Positions 5,047 through 31,605 of a stretch of 64,000 nucleotides of DNA are shown one piece after another; the first letter of the stretch is position 1, and each line of letters opens with the position of its first letter. The stretch covers positions 130,555-194,554 of the forward strand of contig CAVVUL010000008.1 in the NCBI GenBank assembly GCA_963751445.1, in the 5' to 3' direction. The notes beneath the pieces were generated by a model. That model was not told the origin of the DNA, did not search any database, and worked only from the letters and a program-made list of their open reading frames with translations. This DNA is from an uncultured Acidobacteriota bacterium. Its GTDB lineage: Bacteria > Acidobacteriota > Vicinamibacteria > Vicinamibacterales > SCN-69-37. The position numbers were made by a program, and so were the translations under genes.

Positions 5047-6995
5047 GACGCGCGCACGCCCTGCCGATCGAGCCACGCGTTCAGCGCGACCAGGACCCAC
5101 ACCCGGCTCCACGTCACGCCCGCCTCGCGGCGCAGGAATCGCGCCCACAGCCCAGACGCGGCGCCCGGCCTGAGGATGCCGCGGCCATCCAGTCCGCGGT
5201 CGCCCAGCTGCGCGTCGCAGAACGTCCGCAACGGTCCGCGCATCCATGTGTCGAACGGCAGCGCGAAGCCGCGTTTCGGCTGGTGGACGATGGCCCCGGG
5301 CAGCGGCCGTTCGAGACTCTTCACCAGCAGCGATTTCGGCGTGACCCCGCCCGACTTGAGTGCGTCCGGCAGCGACACCACGTACGACGCCAGGCGATGG
5401 TCCAGCAGCGGCACACGCACCTCGAGGCCGTGCGCCATGCTCATCTGATCCGTGTCCCGCAGCAGCACGTCGTGCATGTAGGCGGCCGACTCGGCGTACG
5501 AAATGCGCGCCCACAATCCGGCGTCGCTGAATTCCTCGAACGCCTGCGCGAGCATGGCCACGTAGGTATTGGCCGCGGCCTCGTCTGGCACGTCGCGCGC
5601 GAGCAGCACATCGCGCCGATCGCCGGCGGACAGCACCTGCCGCGTGAGCGGCCAGATTTCCGCGAGCGAGCCGTCGGTTTCGAGGACCGCCGCGGCTTTC
5701 TCGGCGGCCACGCCGCCCCGGCTGGCTCTTCGCAGCATCTTCGCGGCGGCCTGGCGCATGACGACCGGCGACTGGCTCATGCGGCGCGCGGCCGGCCACA
5801 GGCGGCTCAGTCGCTGGAAGGACGGATACCCGCCGAAGATCTCGTCGCCGCCCAGACCGGACAGCGCCACCTTCAGGCCGCGGTCGTGCGCGGCCTTCGA
5901 CACGACGAACGTGTTGAGGCCGTCACCGCTCGGATGATCGACGGCCGACAGCGCGCCGGGCAGCATGCCCACGATGTCCGATCCGCGCAGGCGGATCTCG
6001 GCGTGGTCGGTGCCGAACGCCTCGGCGACCGCGCGCGCCGCCGCGGATTCGTCGGCCGCCGCATCCTCGTCGAGCCCGACTGTGAATGTACGAGGCGTGA
6101 CGCCCAGCGACCGCAGCGTGGACACGAGCGCGCCGGAATCGATGCCGCCGGACAGGAACACGCCGACCGGCACGTCGCTCACGAGGTGCGACTGGACGGC
6201 CTCACGCAGGAGGTCGCCCACGCGGCTCAGCGCCGCGGGCTCGGACACCGGGCCTTTACTTTCTTGGATTTCGCTGGGGCCGCGCGACTCGCGCGTGTCG
6301 CCCGCCAGCAGCGACCAATATCGCCGCGTCGTCATCTGCCCGCGCGCGCTCACGTCCATCACGTGGCCGGGCTCGAGCATGCGGACGTCGCGCAGCAGCG
6401 TCGTTGGCGTCGGCGCGGTCTGATGGCCGAGGTAGTGCCACAGGCTGCCCGTGTCCAGATCCGGCCGAACGAGACCGGACGCGAGGAGCGCGCGCACTTC
6501 AGAGGCAAACACGAAGTGCTGCGGGCCGCGATGGTAGTACAGCGGCTTGATGCCGAACCGGTCGCGCGCCAGCAGCAACCGGTCCTGCGCCGCGTCCCAC
6601 AGGCCGAACGCAAACATTCCGTCGAGGTGATCGACGACCGATGGGCCCCAGTGCTGGTAGCCGGCGAGCAGCACTTCGGTGTCCGACTCGGACGTGAACG
6701 CCGCGCCGTGCTCGCGCAGCCGACTTCGCAACGCGCGGTAGTTGTAGATCTCGCCGTTGTACGACACCGCCGTGCGATCGCGCGCCATCGGCTGTCGTCC
6801 GCCGTCTGACAGATCGATGATGGCGAGCCTGGTGTGGCCGAGCGCGACGACACTGCCCGAGGCCGTCGATGCGTGCCACTGCCCTTCGCCGTCCGGACCG
6901 CGATGCTTCAGCGCGGGCAGCATCGCCTCCACGACACGCCGCGCCGGCGCGTCCTCCGCCGAATCGAACATCAGCACGCCCGCGATGCCGCACAT
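5043..6995 (-). CDS. Asparagine synthase family glutamine amidotransferase (AsnB/WbpS-like), intact 650 aa
   Basis: MCGIAG Ntn-amidotransferase N-terminus and the SGGIDS PP-loop motif. Uninterrupted ORF. Confidence 0.9.
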   Translation of the reverse strand: MCGIAGVLMFDSAEDAPARRVVEAMLPALKHRGPDGEGQWHASTASGSVVALGHTRLAIIDLSDGGRQPMARDRTAVSYNGEIYNYRALRSRLREHGAAFTSESDTEVLLAGYQHWGPSVVDHLDGMFAFGLWDAAQDRLLLARDRFGIKPLYYHRGPQHFVFASEVRALLASGLVRPDLDTGSLWHYLGHQTAPTPTTLLRDVRMLEPGHVMDVSARGQMTTRRYWSLLAGDTRESRGPSEIQESKGPVSEPAALSRVGDLLREAVQSHLVSDVPVGVFLSGGIDSGALVSTLRSLGVTPRTFTVGLDEDAAADESAAARAVAEAFGTDHAEIRLRGSDIVGMLPGALSAVDHPSGDGLNTFVVSKAAHDRGLKVALSGLGGDEIFGGYPSFQRLSRLWPAARRMSQSPVVMRQAAAKMLRRASRGGVAAEKAAAVLETDGSLAEIWPLTRQVLSAGDRRDVLLARDVPDEAAANTYVAMLAQAFEEFSDAGLWARISYAESAAYMHDVLLRDTDQMSMAHGLEVRVPLLDHRLASYVVSLPDALKSGGVTPKSLLVKSLERPLPGAIVHQPKRGFALPFDTWMRGPLRTFCDAQLGDRGLDGRGILRPGAASGLWARFLRREAGVTWSRVWVLVALNAWLDRQGVRAS

Positions 6996-9251: not shown

Positions 9252-10697
9252 GGCGCCGGCGCTCCCATCGGCGCGGCGGCGGCAGGTCTGGCGGGTGTCT
9301 CGGGCTCCGTGCCCGTCAGCCAGGCCAGTTGCGGCCGGAGGATGAACAGCAGCGCCAGCGTCACGATGGCGTTCAGGTTGAGCGCCGCGAAGCCCTTGAT
9401 GAACTGGTGCTCGAAGTCCGCCACGGCCAGCAGGACGACGACCATCGCCCCGTAGCGCAGGGCCGGTACGGCCGTCCACGCGCGCACGGCGCCCGCAATG
9501 AGCCCCATCCAGCACCCGTACGCGAACACGGACGCGAACATCCCGGCCAGGCCCCAATCCGCATAGAACTCGGCCATGTAGCCGATGCTGATGGACGTCT
9601 GTCCTTCCGCGACCTGAATGCCGGTGAACCGGCGCGTGTAGTACCGAATCGGACGGCAGTTCCGGCTTGTCGGGGTTCAGCAGCCGCGGCACGAACGCAT
9701 TCAGCATCGCCATCCGCAGCAGTTCGCCATGCGCGTACGGTTCCCGGTCCGGCACGTGCTCGAGCACGCGGGAGAAGAACGTAATGTAGGACACGCGCTC
9801 CACCAGTGCCTGGACGTACGGCTCGGGGTGCTCGAGGAGCGCCGGCAGTTCGCTGCGGAAATTCTCGACGAAGAAACTGATGTGCTGCGAGGGGTCGGCG
9901 CCGATGGCGCCGGCATCGTGCGCCATGCGCGTGTTCCGCTTGAGGCCGCCCTGCCAGATCAGCAGCAGGATGAGCAGGGCCGCGGCAAACGGCGCGCCCT
10001 TGAGCAGCGCCACGATGCTGCGCGGCCACCACCTGGACTCCCACGGCCGCCACGACGCCGCGAGCACCAGCAGCATGAGCACGATCGGGCTCTTGAAGTC
10101 CGAGTAGTACGTGCCCAGGCGCGGGATCACCGCCCAGGCGAACGACACAAAGAGCAGGAACACGTGCCGACGCGACCGGAGGATTTCCAGCCAGAGCGTG
10201 ACCAGGAGCACCTGACGGAACTCGAGCACCCGCTGCACGAACGACGCGATGCCGCCGAACTCGCGCGCGTTCAGCGTGTACACGTAATCCACGGCATAGC
10301 ACGCCATCACGACGACGAAGAGCGGCCAGACGCGGGAGTCGGGCCCTTCGACGGCAGGCCCTTCGGCAGCGCGCCCGCGGCCCCCCGCCCACTGCGAGGT
10401 CAGGCGGGCGCCAACCGCGAGCACGAGCAATCCCGTCAACGCGATCGTCATCGTGCGCTCGACGTCGCCCGGCACGTAGTAACCCGGGAAGGTACCGAAC
10501 CACGAGGCGTACCAGTGGCCGGCGGTCACGGACAGCCACTGCAGGCCAATGATGAACGGCAGGACGGGCGGGTCGTCTTTTCGCCACAGCAGGCCCGTAC
10601 CCGCAATCAGCACGAACACCGCGTACGCCGTGTTGAGGTCGTCCGCAATCACGCCGGCGAGCGTGCCCAGCACCAGGGCCACGCTGGGCCCGAGCAC
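9248..10697 (-). CDS. Wzy-like polysaccharide polymerase / O-antigen-ligase-like polytopic membrane protein (one frame break near 9600-9650)
   Basis: About 480 aa, almost entirely hydrophobic helices (10 or more), with no soluble domain, embedded among GTs. The C-terminal 109 aa are in ORF 9248-9577. The function is inferred from topology and context only. Confidence 0.55.
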
Positions 10698-20051: not shown

Positions 20052-21247
20052 AGACGAACGACCCTCCCATGCGAAGACCCTCGTACTCGCGCAACGGCAG
20101 CGGCGACGTCCGCCGTACGTAGTTTACGTCCAGGCCGACGCGAATCTGGTCACCAATCCGGCGGCCGATGCCGGCGCCGATCAGGTCGACGTAGTCGACC
20201 CGGCCCAGCCGCAGGTCTCCCACCGGCGGGTACGTCAGGGAACCATGGCTGAAGCGGCCCACGACGTCCCAGCTGAGGCCGATGACCTCCATCGCCTGCG
20301 CGCCCACCGTGGCGGTGACGTAGTAGGGCTCGGCCAGAATCCAGCGAGTAGTCCACGTCCCGCTTCACGATGCCGGACAGCCGGAACCAATCCATGGCGA
20401 CGTAGGTCAGGTCCACGTCCGCGACCCAGCCCGTGTAGTCCGGCTGGTCGGGGCTGATCGTCATGAAGCGCCGCACGCCCACGTAGGCGCTCCCGGAGAT
20501 CAGGGCGAAGGGCTTGAAGATCACGCCAGGCATCACCCGGACGCTGTCGCTGTCCCGTTCGGGTGTGTAGACGAATCGATCCCGAATCCAGTCGGTGCGA
20601 ATTGCGAAGCTGGTGAGCGGGGTCAGTTCGAACTTGCCGGTCAGATTGATCTCGTCGCTGTCCCGGTTCAAGGCGTTCGCCACGAACGCATCGCCATAGG
20701 TGCCCTGCAGGTAGTCGTAGCGCGTGCGCCTCACGTCCACATCGGCGTCCACCCGGCTGGCCACGTGCAGCATGGCGCCCACCTCGGCGCCGGTGCGCAG
20801 CTCCTGCACCCGCAGATCGATTTCGGCGTTCGGCCGGCGCCGCATGTTGGAATAGACGCCCGCCACGCGCGGGGTCACGCGCGCCAGATCGATATCGACG
20901 CGCAGGTCTTCGCCGTAGCTGAACGATCGTTGCGTGGCCGTCTGTCTGTAGTACAGCCAGTCCGTCGTCGTCTTGCTCGAGATGAGCGCGCGGCCGACCT
21001 GCAGCCATACGTCCGCGCCGGGCAGCACGCTCATCGTCGTGTCGCGGATCGGATTCAGCGGCGCGAGGAACACGTTCGTGTCCACGCCGAGGTTCTGGAT
21101 CGCCAGCCGGGGCGTCACCGCCAGCGGGCCGAAATGGAACATCGCGCTCTGCGACGCTTCCAGCGCCTGGCCCCACGCGAGCGCCGGCATCGCCAGCATG
21201 GCGCAGGCCAGCGGGATCAGTCGGCGGCCGAGTTGTCTCCACTCCAC
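20041..21247 (-). CDS. Predicted outer-membrane beta-barrel protein (one frame break near 20310-20330)
   Basis: GTG at 21247. Signal peptide LACAMLAMPALAWGQ. Long run of alternating hydrophobic/polar strands rich in Y, D, R and T (ORF 20150-21247), continued by ORF 20041-20307. It overlaps the OPX gene start by 11 nt. Confidence 0.6.
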
Positions 21248-21273
21248 CAGGTCGCTACCTTTTATCCGGGAAT

Positions 21274-21294
21274 GGCCCGCCGATCTGGCGGGCC
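21274..21294 (-). terminator. GC hairpin (GGCCCGCC-GATCT-GGCGGGCC) between the small tail-anchored protein gene and the beta-barrel gene
   Basis: Seen directly: 8-bp perfect stem, 5-nt loop, no clear U-tract. Candidate attenuator or pause site. Confidence 0.35.
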
Positions 21295-21301
21295 GCGAAA
21301 C

Positions 21302-21754
21302 CTACTTGCTGTTGCTCCGCTTGACGATCACGATCGCCGCCGCGGCGCCGGCCGCCAGCAGCCAGAGCGCGAGCGGGGCCTTGCCGCAACTGACGTTCAC
21401 ATCAAGCCTGCTGGGCACGGCCGTCGTCAGGGCGTAGGGCCCCTCGGTGCACACGATCTTCTTCTCTTTGACCTGCACGAGTTCGATCAGGTAGGTCCCG
21501 GGGACCGTCGATTTGAGGAAGCTGAATTGACCCTGCGGGTCGAGGGGCTGCGTGTTCGCGACCACGCCGCTGGCCACGTCGCGCAACTGGACCACGTAGT
21601 CCGCGTACGGCTTCTTGGCCTCGTCTGTCGCCTTGCCGGCAATCGTGCCCGGCGCGGCCTGGCCGAACGCCGGTTGGACGCCGGCCGCAAGACACACCAC
21701 AAGCAGGGCGGCCACGACCCGGTTGACGCGGTGGGTTGGGACGGTCTGCCTCAC
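21302..21754 (-). CDS. Small exported protein with a carboxypeptidase-regulatory-like beta-sandwich and a C-terminal TM helix plus basic tail
   Basis: I chose GTG 21754 (GAAGGGAAG upstream) over the ORF-track start 21829. Signal peptide VVAALLVVCLAAGVQPAFGQA. Middle pattern GxIxGKxxD...GQFSF..VPGTYLIEL. It ends GKAPLALWLLAAGAAAAIVIVKRSNSK. Confidence 0.55.
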   Translation of the reverse strand: MRQTVPTHRVNRVVAALLVVCLAAGVQPAFGQAAPGTIAGKATDEAKKPYADYVVQLRDVASGVVANTQPLDPQGQFSFLKSTVPGTYLIELVQVKEKKIVCTEGPYALTTAVPSRLDVNVSCGKAPLALWLLAAGAAAAIVIVKRSNSK

Positions 21755-21839
21755 GACTTCCCTTCTGCCTTCTGCTCGGACCCTGCCGTCCCTTTCATCT
21801 TCCGGCCGGCCCGAGCGGGTGTCAAGCACGCCACCACGC

Positions 21840-21881
21840 CTGTATCGTTTCAGCGACAGCGGCGTACCCGTTTCGATACAG
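21840..21881 (-). promoter_or_regulatory. Inverted repeat CTGTATCG-N26-CGATACAG abutting the stop codon of the EBP-like gene
   Basis: Seen directly: plus strand CTGTATCG at 21840-21847 and CGATACAG at 21874-21881. Either a weak terminator or a protein-binding palindrome upstream of the 21754 gene. Confidence 0.3.
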
Positions 21882-23337
21882 CTACTTCCGAGGCGACAGC
21901 AGCGCGCGCGACACGTTCAGCTGCCGCACCTTTCGATAGAGATTCGTCCGCTGAAGCCCCAGCGCCTTGGCGGCATCACCCACGCGGCCGCTGTGCCGGA
22001 TGAGCGTGGCGCTGATGCACTCGCGCTCGAAGCGCGCGCGGGCTTCCCGCAGCGTCATCGCGCCGCCGGCGGGCTCGCTGGGCCCGGCGTCGAGGCTCAC
22101 GTGCTCCAGCACGTTCTCGAGCTGGATGACGGGCTGTGACGTGGCCTTCACGGCCGCGGTGACCGCGTCGCGCAACTCTCTCGCGTTCCCCCGCCACGGC
22201 AGCGCGGCCAGCAGGGCCAGCGCCAATCGGCTGAAGCGTTTCGAATCCGCCGCCTTCCGTGTCGCACGCGCGCTTGAGGAAGTACGCCGCCAGCAGCGGC
22301 ACGTCCTCGCGCCGGCGCCGCAGCGGCGGCATGTCGACGCGCACCTGGGCGAGCCGCTCGAACAAGTCGCGGCGCAGGCGCCCGTCCGCCATCGCCTCGT
22401 CCACATCCGGCCCGGCGACCGCAATCGGCCGGAAGTCGAGCGGAATCGTTTCCTGCAGGTCGACGGAGAACACTTCCCTGTCGCGCAGCAGTTGCGCCAG
22501 GCGCGTCTGAATCCTCGCGGGGGCGTCCACGACGTTGAGAAGGAGCAGCGAACCGCCCTGCGCCGCGATCACGGCGCTCGTTCGCGTCGCCTGCACGGCC
22601 AGCCCGGACGCCGCATCGTGGTCGGTGACGGCGCCGAACAGGCGCCGTTCGAGTTCATTCGGCCCTTCGGCGGCGCAGTCCACCATGGCGAGCGGCCGGG
22701 TCACGTAATCATGATCGCGCTCGTGCAGCGTGCGGGCCACGAGCTGCCGGCCGGAACCGTCTTCGCCGCTGATCAGGACAGCGGTCCGGCGCGATGCGGC
22801 GGACTTCAGTCCCGCGGAGACCATCCGCATCGACGCGGAATACTCGAACAGGCGTTCCGTCGCGCCCGGCGCCGCCGGCGACGGGTCAACCGCGACGGCA
22901 TCCCGGGCCGCCGCAAACACGATGGCCACGTCCCGCTCGTCGAACGGCCACGGCAACAGGTCGGTCGCGCCGGCATAGATGGCTTCGCTCGCGACCAGCG
23001 GCTGCGTGGTGTCCATCAAGCCGATGACCGGCACGGCCGGGAACTGCGCGCAGATGAGCCGGACCGCGGCAATCGAGGTGCGCTCGGTCGCCAGGTCCAC
23101 GACGACGAGGCCGAATCGCCGCGCGCCCAGCGCCTGCAGCGCACCCGGCACGTCGTCGGCCACGGTCACGAGGGCGCCTGCCTTGGTCAGGCGATCGCGA
23201 ACCAGGACGCGATCGCGGACACGAGCCGGCAGATAGAGCACCGCCAACGGCGACTGTCCGTCCGCATGGGTGGACGGTGCGTCCTGACCGGGTAGCCGGA
23301 CGCGTCTCAAGAAGGGCTGGGGATTCGCTGCCATCAA
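21882..23337 (-). CDS. NtrC-family-like regulator (receiver-like / AAA+ / HTH) with degenerate catalytic motifs; one frame break near 22260
   Basis: ORF 21976-23337 plus ORF 21882-22424. It carries PPLRRRREDVPLLAAYFL, ALPWRGNARELRDAV and a C-terminal HTH (GDAAKALGLQRTNLYRKVRQL). However, Walker A reads GEDGSGRQ, the sigma-54 contact loop reads GAVTDH and Walker B reads LLLLNVVD. Confidence 0.8.
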
Positions 23338-23948
23338 CGTTTTGCTTTCGGAGTAGGCACGGGTTGGAAGACGCCGTCGCCGTCTGGATCGGATTCCACG
23401 GCCGTCACGTGACCGGCCGCGTCGTACCGCAGCCGCTGCGTCGGGCGGCCCTTACCGAGCAGGTCCAGGTCCACCTGGGCCAGCACGCCTCGCTCGTAGG
23501 TTTCCCACTTGTCGGGACGCCCATCCGCATCGGTGTCGTCCACGACGCGCTGGATCGCGCCGTCCACGTAGAATTCGCGCCGCGTGATCGTCTGGCCGGC
23601 GCCGTTCGCCTCGTCGGCGTGATCGATGAGGTTCGAGGCCGGAGCCGCGCCGCTGGCGGGTGACGAACCGTAGTATTCCCAACGGTCCGGCCGTCCATCG
23701 CCGTTACGGTCGATTTCGATGTATTTGATGACTGCGCCATCCATGAACGCCCGCGTCTCGTTGCGGCCGTCGTGATCGCGGTCCGACAGCAGCTGTTCGA
23801 GCCAACCTGTTTGCTGGTTGTAGACAGGCGAAATGCCGTTGGCCGCCAACTGGTCGCCCGGGCGGCTGGATCCGCACGCCGCCGCCGCAACCAGCGCGGC
23901 GGCTGTGAGCACCACGTCTGCGATGCGCCGAAGACTCGTCACGGACAT
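23334..23948 (-). CDS. Lipoprotein with four DxDxDG (EF-hand-like) loops, intact 204 aa
   Basis: Lipobox AAAACGS after a signal peptide. Loops are DRDHDGRNE, DRNGDGRPDRWE, DTDADGRPDKWE and DPDGDGVFQ. Two have Glu at loop position 12. ATGA overlap with the regulator gene (23334-23337). Confidence 0.7.
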   Translation of the reverse strand: MSVTSLRRIADVVLTAAALVAAAACGSSRPGDQLAANGISPVYNQQTGWLEQLLSDRDHDGRNETRAFMDGAVIKYIEIDRNGDGRPDRWEYYGSSPASGAAPASNLIDHADEANGAGQTITRREFYVDGAIQRVVDDTDADGRPDKWETYERGVLAQVDLDLLGKGRPTQRLRYDAAGHVTAVESDPDGDGVFQPVPTPKAKR

Positions 23949-24009
23949 GTGATTACCTGACCAGGCGCGGAGGATTCCGCATGTGGCTTCGCCCCGTCAC
24001 TTACAGGGC

Positions 24010-24055
24010 GCGTCGCGCGAGCGACGCGTCCGCCGAAGCCTCGCGCGAAGGCGGA
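24010..24055 (-). terminator. Two adjacent GC-rich hairpins in the spacer between the NusG paralog and the lipoprotein gene
   Basis: Seen directly: GCGTCGC-GCGA-GCGACGC (24010-24027) and TCCGCC-N15-GGCGGA (24029-24055), followed by REP family 1 copy b. Confidence 0.35.
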
Positions 24056-24077
24056 CGGCCGACTACGTGCACTGCTT

Positions 24078-24105
24078 CCGGCGGGCTAAAGCCCGCCGGC
24101 TACTG
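24078..24105 (-). repeat. REP-type hairpin family 1, copy b
   Basis: Plus strand CCGGCGGGCTAAAGCCCGCCGGCTACTG, with flanking CGG(C/T)ACG shared with copy a. It lies 12 nt downstream of the NusG-paralog stop. Confidence 0.8.
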
Positions 24106-24117
24106 CGGCACGAGATC

Positions 24118-24687
24118 CTAGTACGCCCGCACGTCGGCGGCGTCGACTTCCACGCTGACGCCCTGGCCAATCAATCCGACGCTCAGCACCAGCCGCGCGT
24201 GGGCGCCTTTGCGCACGAGCTTTCCGACGACGCCCTTCAGGACGCCCGACACGACTTCCACCTGGCTGCCCTCATTGAGCAGCGGGCACGGGTCGAACTG
24301 CAGGTCGCTCATGACCAGCGTCCGAATGGCGTCAATCTCTTCTTCTGGAATCGTCGCGGCGCGGCCGTCAAACGACACGACGTTGGCCACCCCCGCGCAG
24401 CTCAGCACCGCCCGGAACTGCTCGACGTGCAGCCGCGCGAAGCAATAGCCTTGAAACAGCGGCCAGTCGATCCGCTTGCGGCGGTCCTTCCACCGGCTCC
24501 ACCTCGGAATCGTGGGCAAAAAGGCTTCGAGGCCCTTCCGCGTCAACTGGTCCCGCACCGTCGCTTCGTGGCGGGACTTGGTCCGAATCGCGAACCACCC
24601 GACGGTCTGGTCCAGGGATTCGCTGGCGGCTCCCCGTGAAAGGCCGGTCGAGGCCGGCGTGTGCGGGTCGAAGGAATTGGTATCCAT
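24118..24687 (-). CDS. NusG paralog (NGN + KOW; UpxY/RfaH/LoaP-type specialised antiterminator candidate)
   Basis: WFAIRTKSRHEATVRDQL..GLEAFLP...WPLFQGYCFARL matches the NGN domain. GSQVEVVSGVLKGVVGKLV matches KOW. Start moved to ATG 24687 because the ORF-track GTG 24717 sits inside the sigma-54 promoter spacer. Confidence 0.8.
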   Translation of the reverse strand: MDTNSFDPHTPASTGLSRGAASESLDQTVGWFAIRTKSRHEATVRDQLTRKGLEAFLPTIPRWSRWKDRRKRIDWPLFQGYCFARLHVEQFRAVLSCAGVANVVSFDGRAATIPEEEIDAIRTLVMSDLQFDPCPLLNEGSQVEVVSGVLKGVVGKLVRKGAHARLVLSVGLIGQGVSVEVDAADVRAY

Positions 24688-24708
24688 CGTGGGCCATCGA
24701 TGAGAGAG

Positions 24709-24723
24709 GCAACCCACGTGCCA
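24709..24723 (-). promoter_or_regulatory. Sigma-54 (-24/-12) promoter TGGCACG-N4-TTGC
   Basis: Minus strand reads TGGCACGTGGGTTGC, a full match to the consensus core. It is intergenic, with the -12 element ending 21 nt upstream of ATG 24687. Confidence 0.75.
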
Positions 24724-24829
24724 GAACGGGGCGGCATGACCGCCAGAGCTGCCGTGTCTCCAACTACTTGCGTCGTAACGTGTTTGATACGGGGGGCGGT
24801 ATCCGTTTCGTCTCGGCCGCGCGCTCGCC

Positions 24830-24867
24830 CTGACACCGAAAGCCGGACGGCATGTCAGATTTGTCAG
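24830..24867 (-). promoter_or_regulatory. Candidate upstream activator sequence: three copies of hexamer CTGACA/TGTCAG
   Basis: Plus strand CTGACA 24830-24835, TGTCAG 24853-24858 and TGTCAG 24862-24867. These form an inverted repeat with N17 plus a direct repeat with N3, about 105-145 bp upstream of the -24 element. Confidence 0.4.
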
Positions 24868-24893
24868 CCGCGCAACAATTTGGCGAGGAGACC

Positions 24894-25619
24894 TTACACG
24901 ACGTCTCCGGGGCCGGTTGGCTCGTCATCCGGTTGCGGCCCCTTGCTTCGGGCGTAGAGATAGGAGGCCAGGAAGATCACGCCGATCACCACAAGGGAGA
25001 CGTTTCTCGGCATTTCCCAGCCGATCCAGTGCTCCGCGTGCGCGTATTCGAGCAGCAGTTTCGCGCCCACCCACGCAATGATGATGAAGGCGCCGTCCAC
25101 GATCGCGGGATACCGGCGAATCAAGGCGATCAACTTCCCCGCCACCACGCGCATCGCGATGATGCCGAGGATGCCGCCGGTCACGACGACCGCGATCTTG
25201 GGTGACAGGGCGACGGCCACGAGGATCGAATCGACCGAGAAGGCGATGTTGATGAATTCGACGCGGACGATCGTCGCCCAGAACGCCGAGAGGCCCCACA
25301 TCGGCCTCGCCGCGGCGATGGGCCTTCCCGACTCGCCGGCGTCCCCATGCCGGAAGTGCTGCACGGCCAGATACAAGAGGTAGGCGCCGCCCGCGAGTTT
25401 GACCCAGGCGGCCTGAATGAGGACCGCCGCGAGCAGGACGGCGATGAATCGGAAAATGAACGCGGCGACGAGACCGTAGCGGAGCGCGCGGCTTTGCTGC
25501 GGTCGGGGCAGGCCCATGACCAGAATGGCCATGACCAGCGCGTTGTCCGCGCTCAGGAGGCCTTCCAGCAGCACCAGCAGGCCGATGGTCGGGAGGTCGC
25601 TCAGGGCAATGTCGAACAC
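24894..25619 (-). CDS. TerC family integral membrane protein
   Basis: LLEGLLSADNALVMAILV and repeated hydrophobic helices. I prefer GTG 25619 (GGAGG 8 nt upstream) to the ORF-track start 25709. Confidence 0.8.
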   Translation of the reverse strand: MFDIALSDLPTIGLLVLLEGLLSADNALVMAILVMGLPRPQQSRALRYGLVAAFIFRFIAVLLAAVLIQAAWVKLAGGAYLLYLAVQHFRHGDAGESGRPIAAARPMWGLSAFWATIVRVEFINIAFSVDSILVAVALSPKIAVVVTGGILGIIAMRVVAGKLIALIRRYPAIVDGAFIIIAWVGAKLLLEYAHAEHWIGWEMPRNVSLVVIGVIFLASYLYARSKGPQPDDEPTGPGDVV

Positions 25620-25689
25620 GTTCGGCGCCTCCAAGTATGGGCGCAGTGCCCCGCTCGTGTCATGCGCGGCCCGGCGCGCGGAACACGAC

Positions 25690-25710
25690 CTTGACACGTT
25701 CCGTATCAAT
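25690..25710 (+). promoter_or_regulatory. HAIR-like inverted repeat CTTGACA-N7-TATCAAT overlapping the -35 element
   Basis: The core TTGA-N11-TCAA has the same spacing as the HspR operator consensus CTTGAGT-N7-ACTCAAG. It matches 5/7 and 4/7 positions in the two arms. Confidence 0.4.
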
Positions 25711-25719
25711 GCCTATATT
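25691..25719 (+). promoter_or_regulatory. Sigma-70-type promoter TTGACA-N17-TATATT for hspR
   Basis: Seen directly: TTGACA at 25691-25696 and TATATT at 25714-25719 with a 17-nt spacer, in an AT-rich island of a GC-rich genome. The ATG at 25731 is only about 5 nt beyond the expected transcription start. Confidence 0.65.
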
Positions 25720-25730
25720 CGGATCAGCGT

Positions 25731-26089
25731 ATGGATCGACGGACGCCCGACTGGGTTTTGATCAGCATGGCCGCCGAACTGCTGGAGATGCATCCGCAGA
25801 CGCTGCGGAAGTACGAGCGGCTCGGCCTCGTGCGCCCGCCCCGCACGCTCGGCAGCATGCGCGTGTATTCGCGCCACGAACTCGACCGCCTGCGCCTGAT
25901 CAAGATCGCTGGTCGATGACGCCGGGATCAATCTGGCGGGCGTCCGGCGGCTGCTGTCGATCGTGGACATCGCCGAACGGATGCGGCCGCTCGTGCGGCG
26001 GCCGAAGCGGCGATCGGACGCCCAGGATCAGCTCGATCCGGGAGGTCCAGGAGTTGTGCCGCCTGCTGGGCCTGGAGGACGCGCGCTAG
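25731..26089 (+). CDS. hspR: MerR-family heat-shock regulator HspR (at least 2 frame breaks)
   Basis: ISMAAELLEMHPQTLRKYERLGLVRPPRT.GSMRVYSRHELDRLRLIK is the MerR/HspR HTH. It continues as LVDDAGINLAGVRRLLSIVDIAERM in another frame and ends EVQELCRLLGLEDAR-stop at 26089. Confidence 0.75.
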
Positions 26090-26101
26090 CGCGGCTCCCG
26101 C

Positions 26102-27095
26102 ATGGACTACAAGGACTACTACGCGGTGCTCGGCGTCGCCAAGACGGCGACCGACGAAGAGATCAAACGCGCGTACCGGAAGCTGGCGCGCAAGCACCAT
26201 CCCGATTTGAATCCGGGCGACAAGTCCGCGGAGACGAAGTTCAAGGAAATCAACGAGGCCAACGAGGTGCTCGGCGATCCGGAGAAGCGCCGCAAGTACG
26301 ACGAACTCGGGGCCAACTGGCGCCAGTACGAGCAGCAGGCGGCCGCCGGCCGCCCCGGCGGCTTCCCGGGCGGCGGTTTCGGACCGGGCAGCCAGGGCGG
26401 CTATCGCACGGTGAGCCCGGAAGAGATGGAGCAGATGTTCGGCGGCGGCGGCGAGCAGTCGCCGTTCTCCGACTTCTTCTCGACGTTCTTCGGCGGCAGT
26501 GGCGAGCCGGCCGCGCCGGGGCGCCGCGGCCGATCGGGGCGCGCCCGCCGCGGTCAGGACGTCGAGGCGCAAGCGGAGCTGACGCTCGAAGAAGCGTTCG
26601 CCGGCACGACGCGGAAAGTCGCACTGGCCCGGAACGGCAAGGACCACACCGTCGAGGTGCGCATTCCGGCCGGCATCAAGGACGCCGCGCGGATTCGGGC
26701 GGCTGGCGAGGGCGGCCGCGCCAGCGGCCAGGGGTCCGCAGGGGATCTGTTCCTGTCCGTGCGCGTGCTGCCGCACGCCGCGGTTCGAACGGCGCGGGCT
26801 GGACCTGCATACGCGGGCGCGCGTGCCGGTGACGACCGCCGTGCTGGGCGGCGAGATTGCCGTGCCGGCCCTGTCCGGATCCACGCTGCGCCTGAAGATT
26901 CCGGAAATGACCACCGCGGGCCGCGTGTTCCGCCTGCGCGGTCACGGCATGCCCACCGTGGGGAAACCAGAAGACCGCGGCGACCTGTACGTGGCGGTGG
27001 ACATCGAGATTCCGTCGCAGGTGTCACCCGAGGAACGCACGCACTACGAAGCGCTGCAGGCCCTCGCCGGCGCCAGAAAGGAAGGTTCGTCGTGA
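26102..27095 (+). CDS. cbpA: J-domain co-chaperone without zinc finger (CbpA/class II DnaJ), one frame break near 26780
   Basis: J domain DYYAVLGV...[10 protein letters not shown], a G/F-rich linker, no CxxCxGxG repeats, and C-terminal substrate-binding domains (ORF 26823-27095). Confidence 0.8.
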
Positions 27096-27097
27096 AC

Positions 27098-29725
27098 ATG
27101 AATCGCTACACCGAAAAGGCGCAGGAAGCCGTCATCGGCGCCCAGCAGCTCGCCGAGCGCGCCGGCAATCCTGAGGTCCTGCCCGAACATGTGCTGCTCG
27201 CGCTGATCGCGCAGCGCGACGGCGTCGTGCCGGCCGTCCTCGGCAAGATGCAGATCGACGCGGATGCGCTCGCGACCTGAGGTCCAGGGCCTCGCTCGAA
27301 CCGGCTGCCGAAGCGTGCACGGCGGCGCGCAGCCGGGCCTGTCCGCCCGCCTGCGGCAGGTCCTGACGCACGGCGGAGACCGAGGCTGAAGCGCTCAAGG
27401 ACGAATTCACCAGCACCGAGCATCTGTTCCTGGCGATCGCGTCGGAGGCCGGCCGCTCCCCCGCCGCCCAGGCCGCTCAAGCAGCGCGGCGTCACGCGCG
27501 ACGCCATCCTGCAGGCGCTCACCGCGGTGCGCGGCTCGCAGCGCGTCACCGATCAGAACCCCGAGGGCAAGTACCAGGCGCTCGAACGCTACGGCCGCGA
27601 CCTCACCGAGATCGCCCGCAAGGGCAAGCTCGATCCGGTCATCGGCCGCGACGACGAGATCCGCCGCGTCATCCAGGTGCTGGCGCGCCGGACGAAGAAC
27701 AATCCGGTGCTCATCGGCGAGCCGGGCGTCGGCAAGACCGCCATCGTGGAAGGCCTCGCCCAGCGCATCGTGCGCGGCGACGTGCCCGAAGGCCTGAAGC
27801 AACAAGCGGATCGTCGCGCTCGACATGGGCGCGCTCGTCGCCGGCGCCAAGTATCGCGGCGAGTTCGAGGAACGGCTGAAGGCCGTCCTCAAGGAAGTGG
27901 CCGACGCCCAGGGCCAGGTCGTGCTGTTCATCGACGAGCTGCACACCGTCGTCGGCGCCGGCGCGGCGGAAGGGTCGATCGACGCGTCCAACCTGCTCAA
28001 GCCGATGCTCGCGCGCGGCGAGCTGCACACGATTGGCGCCACGACGCTGGACGAATACCGCAAGCACATCGAGAAGGATGCCGCGCTCGAACGCCGCTTC
28101 CAGCCGGTGCAGGTCGGCGAGCCGACCGTCGAGGACACGATCAGCATCCTGCGCGGACTGCGCGAGCGCTATGAGATCCACCACGGCGTCAAGTTCAAGG
28201 ACTGCGGCGCTCGTCGCCGCGGCCGTGCTGTCGAACCGCTACATCGCGGACCGGTTCCTGCCCGACAAGGCGATCGATCTGGTCGACGAAGCCGCGTCAC
28301 GGCTGCGCATGGAGATCGACTCGATGCCGGCGGAACTGGACGAGGTCAGCGTCGCATCATGCAGCTCGAGATCGAACGGGAGGCGCTGCGGAAGGAATCC
28401 GACAAGGCGTCGCGCGAGCGTCTCGGCAGGCTCGAGAAGGAACTGGCCGACCTCAAGGAGACGCAGACGCGCCTGAGCGCGCAGTGGCAGCACGAGAAGC
28501 AGGCGATTCAGGACGTGCGCACAGCAGAAGGAAGAACTGGAGCGCATCCGCCAGGAGGCCGACCGCGCGCAGCGGTCCGGCGACTACGCGAAGGCCTCCG
28601 AGCTGCAGTACGGCCGCATCCCGGAGCTCGAACGCCAGATTCTCGCGCACGAGCAAGGCGCCGCCGCGGCCGGCGCCGGGCCGCGCCGCGCATGCTGAAG
28701 GAACAGGTCGACGAGGAGGACATCGCCGAAGTCGTCGCGCGCTGGACGCACATTCCCGTGTCGCAAGCTGATGGAGGGCGAGGTCCAGAAGCTGATTCAC
28801 ATGGAGGAGCGGCTCCACCAGCGTGTGGTCGGACAGGACGACGCGGTCGACCGCCGTCGCCAACGCGATCCGGCGCGCCCGCGCCGGCCTGCAGGATCCG
28901 AACCGCCCGCTCGGCAGCTTCATCTTCCTGGGCCCCACGGGCGTCGGCAAGACCGAACTCGCCCGCGCGCTCGCGGAGTTCCTGTTCGACGACGAGCAGG
29001 CCATGGTGCGGATCGACATGTCGGAGTACCAGGAGAAGCACACCGTGTCCCGGCTGATCGGCGCGCCCCCGGGATACGTCGGCTACGAGGAGGCCGGACA
29101 ATTGACCGAAGCCGTCCGCCGCCGGCCGTACGCCGTCGTGCTGTTCGACGAAATCGAAAAGGCGCATCCGGAAGTGCTGAACGTGATGCTGCAGCTGCTC
29201 GACGACGGCCGCCTGACCGACGGACAGGGCCGGACGGTGGATTTCCGCAACGGCGTCATCATCATGACGTCGAACGTCGGCAGCCACTTCATCGCGGAGC
29301 GGGCGATGCTCGGAGACACGACGCTCGACGAGGACACGCGCCGGCAGTTGCTGGACGCGCTGCGCCAGCACTTCAAGCCGGAGTTCCTGAACCGCATCGA
29401 CGACGTGATCTTCTTCCACGCGCTCGGCCGCGCGGACATCCGGACAGATCATCGATATTCAGCTCGGGCGCTGCTCCGCCGGCTGGAGGATCGGAAGATC
29501 CGCCTCGAGCTGACCGACAAAGCGCGCGACATCCTCATCGAGGAAGGATACGATCCGGTCTATGGCGCCCGGCCGCTCAAGCGGATGATTCAGCGGCGCC
29601 TCCTCGATCCGCTGGCGCTCGGGGTGTTGCAGGGCCAGTTTGGCGAAGGGGACGTGGTGACGGCTGAGGCCAGCAAGGACGGACTGATGTTGACGCGCGC
29701 GGTTGCCGCGCGGAAGCGGGGCACG
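27098..29725 (+). CDS. clpB: ClpB disaggregase (many frame breaks; C-terminal end unresolved)
   Basis: [19 protein letters not shown], both AAA+ modules ([15 protein letters not shown]; [17 protein letters not shown]), the coiled-coil middle domain and [18 protein letters not shown]. No in-frame stop precedes the ftsH ATG in the final frame. Confidence 0.8.
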
Positions 29726-31605
29726 ATGACACCGACCGATCAGGACAAACGCCCGGGCGGCCCTCGCCGCCCCACCATGCCGGGTGGCCGCTCGTTCTCG
29801 CCGCTCTGGCTCGCCGCGGGCCTGCTGCTGCTGATGGTGCTCGCCAACGGCGTCCGCGCCATCGTCGGTCCGGGCGAAGAGCTGCAGGTACTCGCAGTTC
29901 AAGTCGCTGATCGGCGAGGGGCGCATCTCCGATGTCGTCATCACGCCCGATCGGATCGACGGCACGTACCAGAACGCGTCCAAGGCGATCGTGCCGTTCT
30001 ACACCGTCCCGGTGGACGGATCCGAAGCTGCTCGAGCTGCTGGAGCCAAGAACGTCCGTATCAGGCGAGGGTGGAGAGCCGCTGGGTGGCGGAACTGCTG
30101 TCATGGGTCCTGCCGGTGGCGCTGATCGTCGCGCGTGTGGCTGTTTTTCTTCCGGCGCATGAGCGGCACGGAGGGCGGCATCATGTCGTTCGGCCGCAGC
30201 CGCGCGAAGATTTTCGCGGAAGACGACGTCAAGGTGAGTTTCGCGGATGTGGCGGGGGTCGACGAAGCGGCGCAGGAACTGCGCGAGATCGTCGACTTTC
30301 TGAAGACACCCGAAGAAATACACGACGCTGGGCGGCCGCATCCCGAAGGGCGTGCTGCTCGTCGGGCCTCCCGGCACCGGCAAGACGCTGCTGGCGCGGG
30401 CCGTCGCCGGCGAAGCCAAGGTCCCCTTCTTCAGCCTGAGCGGATCGGACTTCGTCGAGATGTTCGTGGGCGTCGGCGCGGCGCGCGTGCGCGATCTCTT
30501 CCGGCAGGCGGAGACCAAGGCGCCGTGCATCGTGTTCATCGACGAACTCGACGCGCTCGGCAAGGTCCGCATGCAGTCGCCGATGGGCGGACACGAGGAG
30601 CGGGAGCAGACGCTCAATCAGTTGCTGTCGGAGATGGACGGGTTCGACTCGAAAAAGGGCGTCATCATCATGGCCGCCACGAACCGGCCCGAGGTGCTCG
30701 ACCCGGCGCTGCTCCGGCCCGGCCGCTTCGATCGGCAGGTGCTGGTGGACAAGCCCGACGTGAAGGGGCGCGAAGCCATTCTTCGCATCCATGCGCGAGC
30801 GGTGAAGCTGGACGGCGACCTGGATCTCGCGGTGATTGCCGCGCGGACGGCGGGCTTGCGGGCGCGGACCTGGCGAATCTCGTGAACGAAGCCGCGCTGC
30901 TGGCCGCCCGGCGCGAGAAGGCGGCGGTGGGCGCCTCGGAATTCGAGGAGGCCATCGACCGGGTCGTGGCCGGCCTCGAGAAGAAGCGCGCGATGAACCC
31001 GCGCGTGCGCCGCATCGTCGCCGTGCACGAATCCGGACACGCGATCGTCGCCACGGTGCTGCCCGGCGGCGACCCGGTGCACAAGGTGTCGATCGTGCAG
31101 CGCGGATTCGGCGCGCTCGGCTACACGATGCAGTTGCCGCTCGAGGATCGCTATCTCCTCACGCGCGGCGAGCTCGAGAACCAGCTGGCGGTGCTGCTGG
31201 CCGGCCGCACGGCCGAGTTGCTCGAGTTCAACGAATTCTCCACCGGCGCGCAGAACGACCTGCTGCGGGCCACCGACATCGCGCGCGCGATGGTGACGGA
31301 ATTCGGCATGAGCCCGGCGATCGGGCCGATCAATCACGAGGGCCGGCGGCGCGGCACGTTCGTCGACACGCCGTTCATGCCTGAGCGCGGCGCGTACGCC
31401 GAGGACACCGCGCGCGTCATCGACGCCGAGGTCAAACGCATCGTGACCGACGCGGAAGACCTCCGCGCGCCGCATCCTCGAATCGCATCACGAGAACTTG
31501 CTGAAGCTGACGGACAAACTGCTCGAGCAGGAAGTCGTCGACGGCGACCAGCTGCGCGAGATGCTCGGCCCGAAGGCGAAGCGAGCCCGCCAGAGCGGCC
31601 AGTAG
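29726..31605 (+). CDS. ftsH: ATP-dependent zinc metalloprotease FtsH (about 7 frame breaks)
   Basis: TM-containing N-terminus, [22 protein letters not shown], the second region of homology, the HEXXH site (VHESGHAIV), and a tail ...[13 protein letters not shown] ending at 31605. Confidence 0.85.

Follow-up and report, generated by a model that had tools for sequence, protein, structure and literature searches.

Gene content of the locus

The DNA analysed here, hereafter the window, is a whole stretch of 64,000 nucleotides (64 kb, G+C 69%) from contig CAVVUL010000008.1 of an uncultured soil bacterium of the Vicinamibacterales (Acidobacteriota). Its minus strand carries an exopolysaccharide (EPS) locus headed by upxY, the gene of a specialised paralog of NusG. 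The subject of this work is the putative control region found around that gene, which comprises a sigma-54 promoter preceded by a conserved operator and, past upxY, a short element resembling the ops sites used by antiterminators of this kind. Downstream of upxY, on the same strand, there are genes for a lipoprotein, an NtrC-like regulator and a small CarboxypepD_reg-like protein, followed further downstream, also on the same strand, by those for a beta-barrel protein, Wza, Wzc, a flippase and several GT4 glycosyltransferases. The locus also includes genes for an asparagine-synthase-like protein, a carbamoyltransferase and a priming sugar transferase. The neighbourhood upstream of upxY (TerC, a MerR/HspR-like gene, DnaJ, ClpB and FtsH, 24894-30439) is kept in the closest relatives. 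An original prediction, made from the letters of the window, had drawn attention to this region, and all the motifs that it listed were found at their coordinates when read on the minus strand. The features at the head of the locus, in the order in which they would be transcribed, are the following.

24867-24830, minus strand: distal hexamer cluster CTGACA-N3-CTGACA-N17-TGTCAG, at about -170 to -133
24803-24754, minus strand: conserved operator region, at about -106 to -57 from the predicted transcription start and the most conserved block of alignment A3 (see below); its parts are GATAC (24803-24799), GTATCAAA (24790-24783), a degenerate third half-site TTAC (24778-24775) and TTGGAGACAC (24763-24754)
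24723-24709, minus strand: sigma-54 promoter core, -24 TGGCAC, 5 nt, -12 TTGC (TGGCACGTGGGTTGC), recognised by sequence and comparison
24687-24118, minus strand: upxY, coding for a 189-aa UpxY-family NusG paralog with an NGN domain and a KOW-like C-terminal domain (Pfam, NCBIfam)
24105-24010, minus strand: three G+C-rich hairpins between upxY and the ops-like element, lineage-specific and different from canonical terminators
24007-23982, minus strand: ops-like element CCTGTAAGTGACGGGGCGAAGCCACA, 25 nt, with the core GCGAAGC at 23992-23986; candidate pause and UpxY-loading site
23948-23334, minus strand: gene of a 204-aa lipoprotein with DxDGDG repeats (open reading frame; orthologs in alignment A2)
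23337-21882, minus strand: gene of an atypical NtrC-family regulator with receiver-like, Sigma54_activat and HTH_8 domains (Pfam, NCBIfam)

The relatives used for comparison were Vicinamibacterales metagenome-assembled genomes, and every organism compared is uncultured. A first set consisted of 80 UpxY loci of different species taken from a genome collection. To these we added 19 loci of the same gene order as the window, obtained from a metagenome scan with the lipoprotein as seed and from the contigs of the two closest proteins. Two alignments were used, one of the lipoprotein orthologs (A2) and one of the intergenic region of the closest relatives (A3).

Conservation of the sigma-54 promoter

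The site at 24723-24709 matches all 10 specified positions of TGGCAC-N5-TTGC and has its GG and GC doublets exactly 10 bp apart. It is intergenic and lies on the same strand as TerC and upxY, between the TerC stop codon (24894) and the upxY ATG (24687), which is found 21 nt beyond the end of the TTGC at 24709. The exact motif occurs once in the window against 0.12 copies expected from shuffles (11 of 100 shuffles had at least one match), matches with one mismatch numbered 3 against 4.3 expected, and in a scan of the window the maximum weighted sigma-54 score was reached by this site only. Since the one-mismatch count is ordinary and shuffled sequences sometimes match, the lone site would by itself be suggestive and little else. 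It is its conservation across other genomes that, on sequence comparison, settles the reality of the promoter. The gene order of the window (TerC-UpxY-lipoprotein-regulator-...-Wza-Wzc) was found in 6 of the 80 UpxY loci, and a match at 9 or more of the 10 core positions appeared upstream of UpxY in exactly those six, compared with one of the other 74, where the match falls inside a coding region. Furthermore, all 19 additional metagenomic loci of the same order have TGGYAC or CGGCAC-N5-TTGC upstream of UpxY. Over the resulting set of about 25 same-order loci the GG and the TTGC are invariant, whereas most of the surrounding intergenic sequence is unalignable (A3). When 2.5 Mb of locus sequence were scanned on a single strand, YGGYAY-N5-TTGC gave 71 copies, nearly all in two positional classes: one is the EPS promoter, and the other is a promoter that faces away from the gene of a canonical enhancer-binding protein, in the vicinity of another UpxY paralog. 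The promoter proposed in the original prediction is thus genuine to judge from its core, kept upstream of the ortholog in about 25 same-order loci, and we hold with high confidence that it is functional; it is presumably dependent on sigma-54. Actually, Vicinamibacterales clearly use sigma-54, since 43 related loci encode canonical enhancer-binding proteins with the motifs GETGTGK and GAFTGA and the Asp-Glu pair intact.

The second of these positional classes has the form TGGTAYC-N4-GTTGCS and was observed in L008-L080, at about 10.1-12.3 kb in each locus. It is divergent from the gene of a canonical GAFTGA enhancer-binding protein, some 5 kb downstream of a SurA-linked UpxY paralog, and is preceded by a repeat CGTCAA-N4-6-TTGACG and by an A-CTTAG box about 50 nt upstream.

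From the usual geometry of the -12 element, transcription is expected to start at about 24697, leaving a predicted leader of about 10 nt, and no Shine-Dalgarno sequence is visible before upxY in the window; both points had been anticipated in the original prediction and follow from the sequence once this start is accepted. The predicted start coincides with an out-of-frame ATG (24697-24695, minus strand), with the true upxY ATG 10 nt further. Leaders are similarly short in the closest relatives L081 and L162. Such short leaders suggest near-leaderless translation.

The UpxY-family antiterminator

A NusG-type NGN domain was recognised in the upxY product by Pfam PF02357 (64 bits). The NCBIfam model of UpxY (NF033644) gave 114.4 bits over residues 31-184, above its cut-off of 100, while the models of RfaH (TIGR01955, 70 bits, cut-off 144.5), LoaP (43 bits, cut-off 125) and housekeeping NusG (TIGR00922, 31 bits, cut-off 135.7) all remained below theirs. 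The protein had been predicted to be a specialised NusG paralog, and by these family models it is a member of the UpxY family and not a housekeeping NusG, an RfaH or a LoaP. The closest relatives have in common the N-terminal start MDT(N/A)SF, and residues 1-30 form a variable, disordered extension. AlphaFold2 predicts the NGN domain with confidence, gives beta strands for the C-terminal domain with moderate confidence and leaves about 26 N-terminal residues disordered. The basic beta-hairpin WSRWKDRKKRIDWP is invariant among the homologs aligned and its position is that of the Bacteroides UpxY hairpin that contacts DNA upstream of the pause.

UpxY homologs are abundant in the order (476 related stretches in a genome scan). 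In a neighbour-joining tree the UpxY proteins of loci arranged as the window, together with those of the class called B below, fall outside the clade of the SurA-linked ones. In the window upxY is the first gene of the polysaccharide biosynthesis operon, a place that varies in the relatives.

An ops-like element before the lipoprotein gene

In Bacteroides, UpxY loads onto RNA polymerase paused at the opsX site (Saba et al. 2024, PMC11685472). This site of about 40 bp contains a non-template hairpin 5'-YGCGNAGCR and has a start codon 9-42 nt downstream; one example, opsE, reads CTGCGAAGCATA (PMC11685472). Between upxY and the lipoprotein gene of the window we found a conserved element, with the consensus CTGTAAGTGAsrGGGCGAAGCT (window copy CTGTAAGTGACGGGGCGAAGCC), whose GCGAAGC core is identical to that of opsE. 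The element is unique in the window even when three mismatches are allowed, and 71 of 92 loci have it at 200 nt or less before the lipoprotein gene. Elsewhere in 1.24 Mb there were few weak matches, one of them significant (in L006), and no second copy was found before other operons in the fetched loci. It is always downstream of a promoter, either at 21-160 nt or after upxY. The YGCGNAGCR class is largely fitted, the exceptions being the flanks (G before, T or C after). In the window the geometry of the possible pause would be G at -10, T at -1 and G at +1, with the pause set 11 nt past the GGGG run. By homology with Bacteroides we consider, with moderate confidence, that 24007-23982 is the site where UpxY would be loaded.

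Searches for other leader elements gave little. An Rfam scan of 20500-25500 at a permissive threshold returned one chance-level match and no JUMPstart-type family, and the ops site of RfaH, GGCGGTAGNNTG, had no match at one mismatch or less beyond chance in the window.

The gene that follows the element codes for a lipoprotein without a Pfam family and with one sub-threshold NCBIfam match; it occupies the place where UpxZ might be looked for as second gene, and no UpxZ was found there. A 9-codon upstream open reading frame (MRNPPRLVR*, 23982-23953, minus strand) can be read from the sequence and is present also in the close relative L161 (about 6735-6765). The A and T of its start are the last two bases of the element, and it ends 4 nt before the lipoprotein ATG. 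A hairpin repeat, GTAGGGGAGTCCGAGGGGCGAAGCCCCTCGG, was also noticed at unrelated positions in L011 (~6552-6597), L029 (~9466-9511) and L141 (~2197-2242). It has the look of a repetitive extragenic palindromic or terminator-type sequence, and has GGGCGAAGC in common with the ops-like element by chance only.

Arrangement of the locus in relatives

Promoter type and position of upxY vary among the related EPS loci, which can be sorted into four arrangements.

Class A (the window and about 25 loci in the same order, all Vicinamibacterales): sigma-54 promoter, UpxY, conserved element, lipoprotein gene
Class B (L091, L098, L106, L112): UpxY, then a sigma-54 promoter 27 nt before the element, which has here the variant GCGGAGC
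Class C (e.g. L094, L099, L100, L104, L133, L155): no nearby UpxY; sigma-54 promoter 27-128 nt before the element
Class D (L002, L004, L013, L015): SurA-UpxY, 1.5-2.4 kb, sigma-70-type promoter, element; no sigma-54 promoter

Classes A, B and C resemble each other in the bases that immediately follow the promoter (TTGCY-CTAG or TTGCY-CAAT-AGGGG), pointing to a single ancestral promoter downstream of which upxY has been inserted or has been lost. As far as can be judged from these comparisons, the sigma-54 promoter belongs to the EPS locus and not to the antiterminator. The original prediction had made it a promoter dedicated to the paralog, an idea that has to be abandoned since in relatives it directly precedes the element and the next gene, at a distance of 27-128 nt, and UpxY lies upstream of it, is located elsewhere or is absent. 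What stands of that proposal is that in the window itself the expression of the antiterminator would be gated by the sigma-54 promoter.

The upstream operator and the hexamer cluster

The most conserved sequence upstream of the promoter is related to GTATC. Two of the motifs listed earlier, GATAC-N8-GTATC (24803-24786) and TATCAA-N5-TTA (24789-24776, minus strand), are located within this operator region. Of the 25 class A loci, 19 have GTATCR at 57-82 nt ahead of the -24 box, as do 9 of the 15 loci that have no UpxY, and three of the six class A loci that do not have it possess little or no upstream sequence; the chance of such a match is about 1% per 36-nt interval. The distances to the -24 box are 57, 67-70 or 76-82 nt, in steps of approximately one helical turn. 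The longer form GTATCRAA has just two copies in the 64 kb of the window, both at regulatory positions, one in the operator at the head and the other at the internal promoter described below. A GTATC-box profile gave 20 hits, all of them inside regulatory regions of EPS loci; the copies in the window rest on the exact-pattern count, because the profile is too short to recover them.

The original prediction had labelled TATCAA-N5-TTA as a site like those of the integration host factor (IHF). Both this motif and a CAsTTAG box fail to fit the consensus WATCAANNNNTTR, and the strongly conserved box at that place is GTATCRAA. A similar A-CTTAG box is the one found about 50 nt upstream of the other conserved sigma-54 promoter of the order, so that an architectural site upstream of the promoter is possible. 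More generally, the conserved boxes sit where an activator or an architectural protein would bind, as had been supposed.

The distal hexamers (TGTCAG at 24830-24835, minus strand, and at 24853-24858 and 24862-24867, plus strand) form a real cluster, with 3 of the 11 TGTCAG/CTGACA copies of the window falling within 38 bp; the window total of 11 against 20.5 expected indicates that the hexamer is under-represented. The cluster is weakly conserved in the closest relatives (A3) and is the least conserved of the upstream motifs. Its core, AAhCTGTC/CTGACA, recurs alone at -122 to -166 in about half of the class A loci. The prediction that orthologous loci would conserve both the TGGCAC-N5-TTGC site and the hexamers thus held for the former and only weakly for the latter, and, being barely conserved, the triplet can no longer be regarded as the key upstream activating site. 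It may be the binding site of the true enhancer-binding protein, for which it is a candidate on sequence grounds.

The locus regulator and the internal promoter

The regulator encoded downstream of the lipoprotein belongs to the NtrC family (PF00158, Sigma54_activat, 88 bits; HTH_8, 39 bits) and had been proposed as the enhancer-binding protein of the head promoter. Its sequence is difficult to reconcile with this role. It has GEDGSGR, with the Walker A lysine gone, LLLLNVVD in place of a Walker B with Asp-Glu, and no GAFTGA. All 10 orthologs aligned have GExGTGR and neither GAFTGA nor the Asp-Glu pair; in these, as in the window copy, the receiver domain has moreover lost its acidic pocket. 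Alignments to ZraR and NtrX confirm the loss of these motifs (the best match among solved structures is NtrX, 5m7n). To judge from its motifs the locus regulator cannot activate sigma-54, and therefore the true activator of the sigma-54 promoter would be encoded elsewhere. VpsR and other atypical enhancer-binding proteins without these motifs use sigma-70 polymerase or act as repressors, at promoters of polysaccharide and other genes (PMC6158489).

The gene of the regulator is split over two frames at about 22300-22420. A pseudogene was considered and an assembly error was judged likelier, because ClpB and DnaJ of the window are split as well. Actually, ClpB and DnaJ (26102-30439 and elsewhere) and the regulator are each broken across several reading frames, and the contigs of the two closest relatives, L161 and L162, show the same fragmentation of ClpB and DnaJ, which looks like indel errors of long-read assembly.

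Downstream of the regulator gene, before the small CarboxypepD_reg-like gene (which probably starts at the GTG at 21754), there is a second conserved control region.

21880-21841, minus strand: inverted operator CTGTATCG-N26-CGATACAG
21825-21797, minus strand: sigma-70-type promoter, -35 TTGACA (21825-21820), 17 nt, -10 GAAGAT (21802-21797)

The first of these corresponds to the sequence 21840-21881 that had been taken for a terminator hairpin. It is instead an operator made of inverted GTATCG boxes, with a conserved sigma-70-type promoter after it. Its arms are two of the five TGTATCG copies of the window and include one of the two copies of GTATCRAA. GTATC boxes are present at the equivalent place in 26 of 29 relatives, and TTGAC(A/T/C)-N17-(G/C)A(A/C)(G/A)AT is kept in about 15. 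On the operon strand of the locus this is the sole TTGACA-N17-nAnn(A/T)T. A generic scan for promoters and terminators found nothing here, having missed the promoter because its -10 matches the consensus at 3 of 6 positions. Given this conserved internal promoter, the 23 kb of the locus are not one simple transcription unit. In relatives the box at the head of the locus is part of a rigid 58-60-nt module, GTATCR-N25-TTGACAC-N17-TAnnnT, which was found in classes B, C and D and also, in some loci of class A, after UpxY and ahead of the element. Of its 17 copies, 16 are at this position. From its sequence this module is a sigma-70-type promoter with an activator-like site.

As the same operator precedes the sigma-54 and the sigma-70-type promoter, one locus-specific DNA-binding protein probably serves both. 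The regulator, which seems unable to activate sigma-54, is the best candidate for an operator-binding protein that would couple the two promoters. We propose it as the putative GTATC binder through its HTH_8 domain with low to moderate confidence, on the basis of gene neighbourhood.

The small CarboxypepD_reg-like protein (21754-21302, minus strand) appears to be secreted and ends in a C-terminal hydrophobic helix followed by KRSNSK, a tail that resembles a sorting signal of the PEP-CTERM type, minus the PEP motif. Beyond the stop codon of this gene lies a G+C-rich hairpin (21274-21294), with a counterpart at the same place in many relatives.

Proposed sequence of events and alternatives

Putting these data together, we think it probable, with considerable room left for doubt, that this region is the head control region of a Vicinamibacterales EPS locus and that it works as follows. 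The sigma-54 promoter at 24723-24709, preceded by the conserved locus-specific operator (24803-24754) and the weaker distal box (24867-24830), would be silent until a true AAA+ enhancer-binding protein, encoded outside the window, opens it. Transcription would start about 10 nt before the upxY start codon and produce a near-leaderless message without a Shine-Dalgarno sequence. Past upxY the RNA polymerase would cross the non-conserved hairpins and reach the conserved ops-like element at 24007-23982, where, by analogy with Bacteroides UpxY at opsX, it might pause, load UpxY made from earlier transcripts and become resistant to termination. The modified polymerase would then transcribe the genes of the lipoprotein and the atypical enhancer-binding protein, and probably continue into those of Wza, Wzc, the flippase and the glycosyltransferases. 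A second layer would be provided by the sigma-70-type promoter at 21825-21797, before the structural genes and with the same GTATCG operator, and the HTH_8 regulator of the locus may couple both promoters in the manner of VpsR or NtrX.

Several observations weigh against this proposal. Neither rpoN nor the gene of a GAFTGA enhancer-binding protein was found in the 64-kb window, and a search for the RpoN box gave nothing there or in the fetched loci. TerC is co-directional with upxY with no terminator visible between them, so that read-through from TerC could contribute to the expression of upxY. The position of UpxY varies among relatives, which makes its gating by sigma-54 a lineage-specific trait and no rule for the family. 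The likeness of the element to opsX amounts to the 7-nt core and the context, and the element is downstream of upxY, unlike in Bacteroides. An RNA hairpin within the element was tried and rejected: 76% of cells pair, there are no compensatory changes and the result is no different from that of shuffles. We make no claim of RNA structure, since the relatives would need different pairing registers. Finally, the indel errors of the assembly make spacings and frames in the window slightly uncertain.

The alternative that deserves most attention, unlikely as we consider it, accepts the promoter and sees in the 25-nt element a leader of the lipoprotein gene, acting in translational control, RNA processing or through another protein, with UpxY using some other signal. 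Indeed, whatever the arrangement, and even where no UpxY is encoded nearby, the distance from the element to the start codon of the lipoprotein gene stays at about 0-55 nt, a constancy that would suit a translational or RNA-level leader, as would the lack of second copies before other operons. However, the same GCGAAGC core is found in a UpxY site defined by experiment, Bacteroides sites are themselves close to the next start codon (+9 to +42), and UpxY might be encoded elsewhere in the genome of loci that have none nearby, given how common its homologs are. The conservation of the element at the level of sequence, without RNA covariation, also fits recognition as DNA. A more improbable scheme is the two-tier switch of the original prediction, in which a short upxY transcript would end at the hairpins at 24010-24105 and UpxY would permit read-through into a single 23-kb operon. 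These hairpins do exist and their predicted folding is very stable, with -94 kcal/mol and z = -4.3 for the 177 nt of 23946-24122; nor did the scans reveal any further promoter in the interval from upxY to the lipoprotein gene. Against it, a terminator scan found no T-run terminator at 24010-24105, and the gap between upxY and the element varies from 24 to 204 nt in relatives with folding z values of -3.7 to +0.9, so that the hairpins are not conserved; close relatives such as L068 (24 nt), L162 (41 nt), L084 (43 nt) and L081 (44 nt) have none or very small ones. Moreover, they are upstream of the sole candidate loading site, with no ops-like site before them, and cannot for this reason be the obstacle that UpxY overcomes, and the conserved internal promoter already divides the locus. 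In L042, L066, L090, L114 and L115 a separate sigma-70-type promoter does lie between upxY and the element; loci of this type, in which sigma-54 would gate UpxY and the operon has its own promoter, have a true two-tier layout.

Very improbable, in our judgement, is that the -24/-12 match has been conserved for some other reason and that transcripts of the locus come from TerC by read-through or from a weak GTATC-linked sigma-70 promoter. The co-directional TerC gene with no visible terminator after it would allow this, and in relatives the GTATC box is part of the rigid sigma-70 module, of which TTGGAGACAC is a remnant in the window. However, a usable -35/-10 pair is absent in the window and in the closest relatives, the invariant positions are exactly the bases contacted by sigma-54, at the exact spacing, and the same class of motif marks the second conserved promoter, beside a canonical enhancer-binding protein.

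Within the preferred sequence of events, a more specific combination can be put forward only tentatively, and we would sooner doubt than believe it as a whole. In it, the placement of upxY between a sigma-54 promoter and its own ops-like site would create a feed-forward delay; the dead NtrC-family paralog on the same transcript would bind the shared TGTATCRAA... operator at both the sigma-54 head promoter and the sigma-70 internal one; and the GCGAAGC common to Bacteroidota and Acidobacteriota would reflect an ancient, portable UpxY-ops code, in a layout undescribed in Acidobacteriota. If so, a single enhancer-dependent decision would lead first to the synthesis of the factor and, in the following round, permit the polysaccharide locus to be transcribed processively.

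Vicinamibacterales are abundant in soil and almost never cultured, and their polysaccharides affect soil aggregation and biofilms. To our knowledge nothing is known about the control of polysaccharide genes in this order. The comparison provides four short conserved DNA elements for one widespread polysaccharide locus (sigma-54 promoter, GTATC operator, sigma-70-type promoter and ops-like site), and suggests that the UpxY/ops logic of gut Bacteroides exists in another phylum with the same 7-nt core. Promoter type and the position of the antiterminator are shuffled between lineages. The pairing of a sigma-54 promoter with a locus-encoded, apparently dead enhancer-binding protein bears on the evolution of atypical proteins of this group.

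Comparison with known systems

The closest parallel is UpxY/opsX of Bacteroides. In both cases the protein passes the UpxY family model and has an NGN domain with a conserved basic beta-hairpin, upxY is the first gene of a polysaccharide operon, and an element with a GCG-N-AGC core (about 25 nt here, with a core identical to that of opsE) is found a few tens of nt before a start codon. The differences are also considerable: the promoter is of sigma-54 type here and an invertible sigmaA-type there, and the candidate site is downstream of upxY here and in the leader before upxY there. In addition, the Acidobacteriota locus has no UpxZ, one site per locus was seen, with no multi-operon hierarchy, and the position of upxY relative to promoter and site varies between lineages.

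RfaH/ops of Proteobacteria similarly combines a specialised NusG paralog with a short leader element having a GCG...AGC core, and, like RfaH, the factor is encoded away from the target operon in many of the related loci. Unlike RfaH, the window protein scores far below the family cut-off, its C-terminal domain is predicted to form beta strands (with moderate confidence) instead of an alpha-helical hairpin, and the window has no GGCGGTAGNNTG. LoaP of Firmicutes is another NusG paralog serving one long biosynthetic operon with a leader element, to which the window protein is again too dissimilar by score; LoaP acts with a leader RNA hairpin, whereas no RNA covariation was seen here.

The syp genes of Vibrio fischeri, with SypG, are an example of exopolysaccharide genes controlled by sigma-54. 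A further example is RpoN/BerB in Burkholderia (PMC5552954), and the theme of exopolysaccharide genes under sigma-54 control is well established (Francke et al. 2011, PMC3162934). As in such systems, a sigma-54 promoter heads here an EPS locus that encodes an NtrC-family regulator. Unlike in them, this regulator appears dead for catalysis and for contact with sigma-54, and an antiterminator is the first gene, a feature absent from the accounts in PMC3162934 and PMC12316311.

Atypical enhancer-binding proteins include VpsR, NtrX, HupR, TyrR, PhhR and HsfA (PMC6158489). The regulator of the window is like VpsR, which controls a polysaccharide promoter using sigma-70 (PMC6158489), in that it has kept the Sigma54_activat fold and HTH_8 and has lost GAFTGA and the Walker B Asp-Glu. 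It differs from these proteins in that its Walker A lysine is missing too, as is the acidic pocket of its receiver, and in that its candidate operator precedes both a sigma-54 and a sigma-70-type promoter.

No link between sigma-54 and a NusG paralog was found in PMC3162934, in the 2025 cross-phylum survey of sigma-54 (PMC12316311) or in the NusG-paralog literature searched, in agreement with the original prediction that none had been described, and the literature searched also contained no description of an ops-like site in Acidobacteriota. We regard the locus as parts already known in a new arrangement (a sigma-54 promoter, an UpxY-family antiterminator, an ops-type site and an atypical enhancer-binding protein) and not as a new kind of system.

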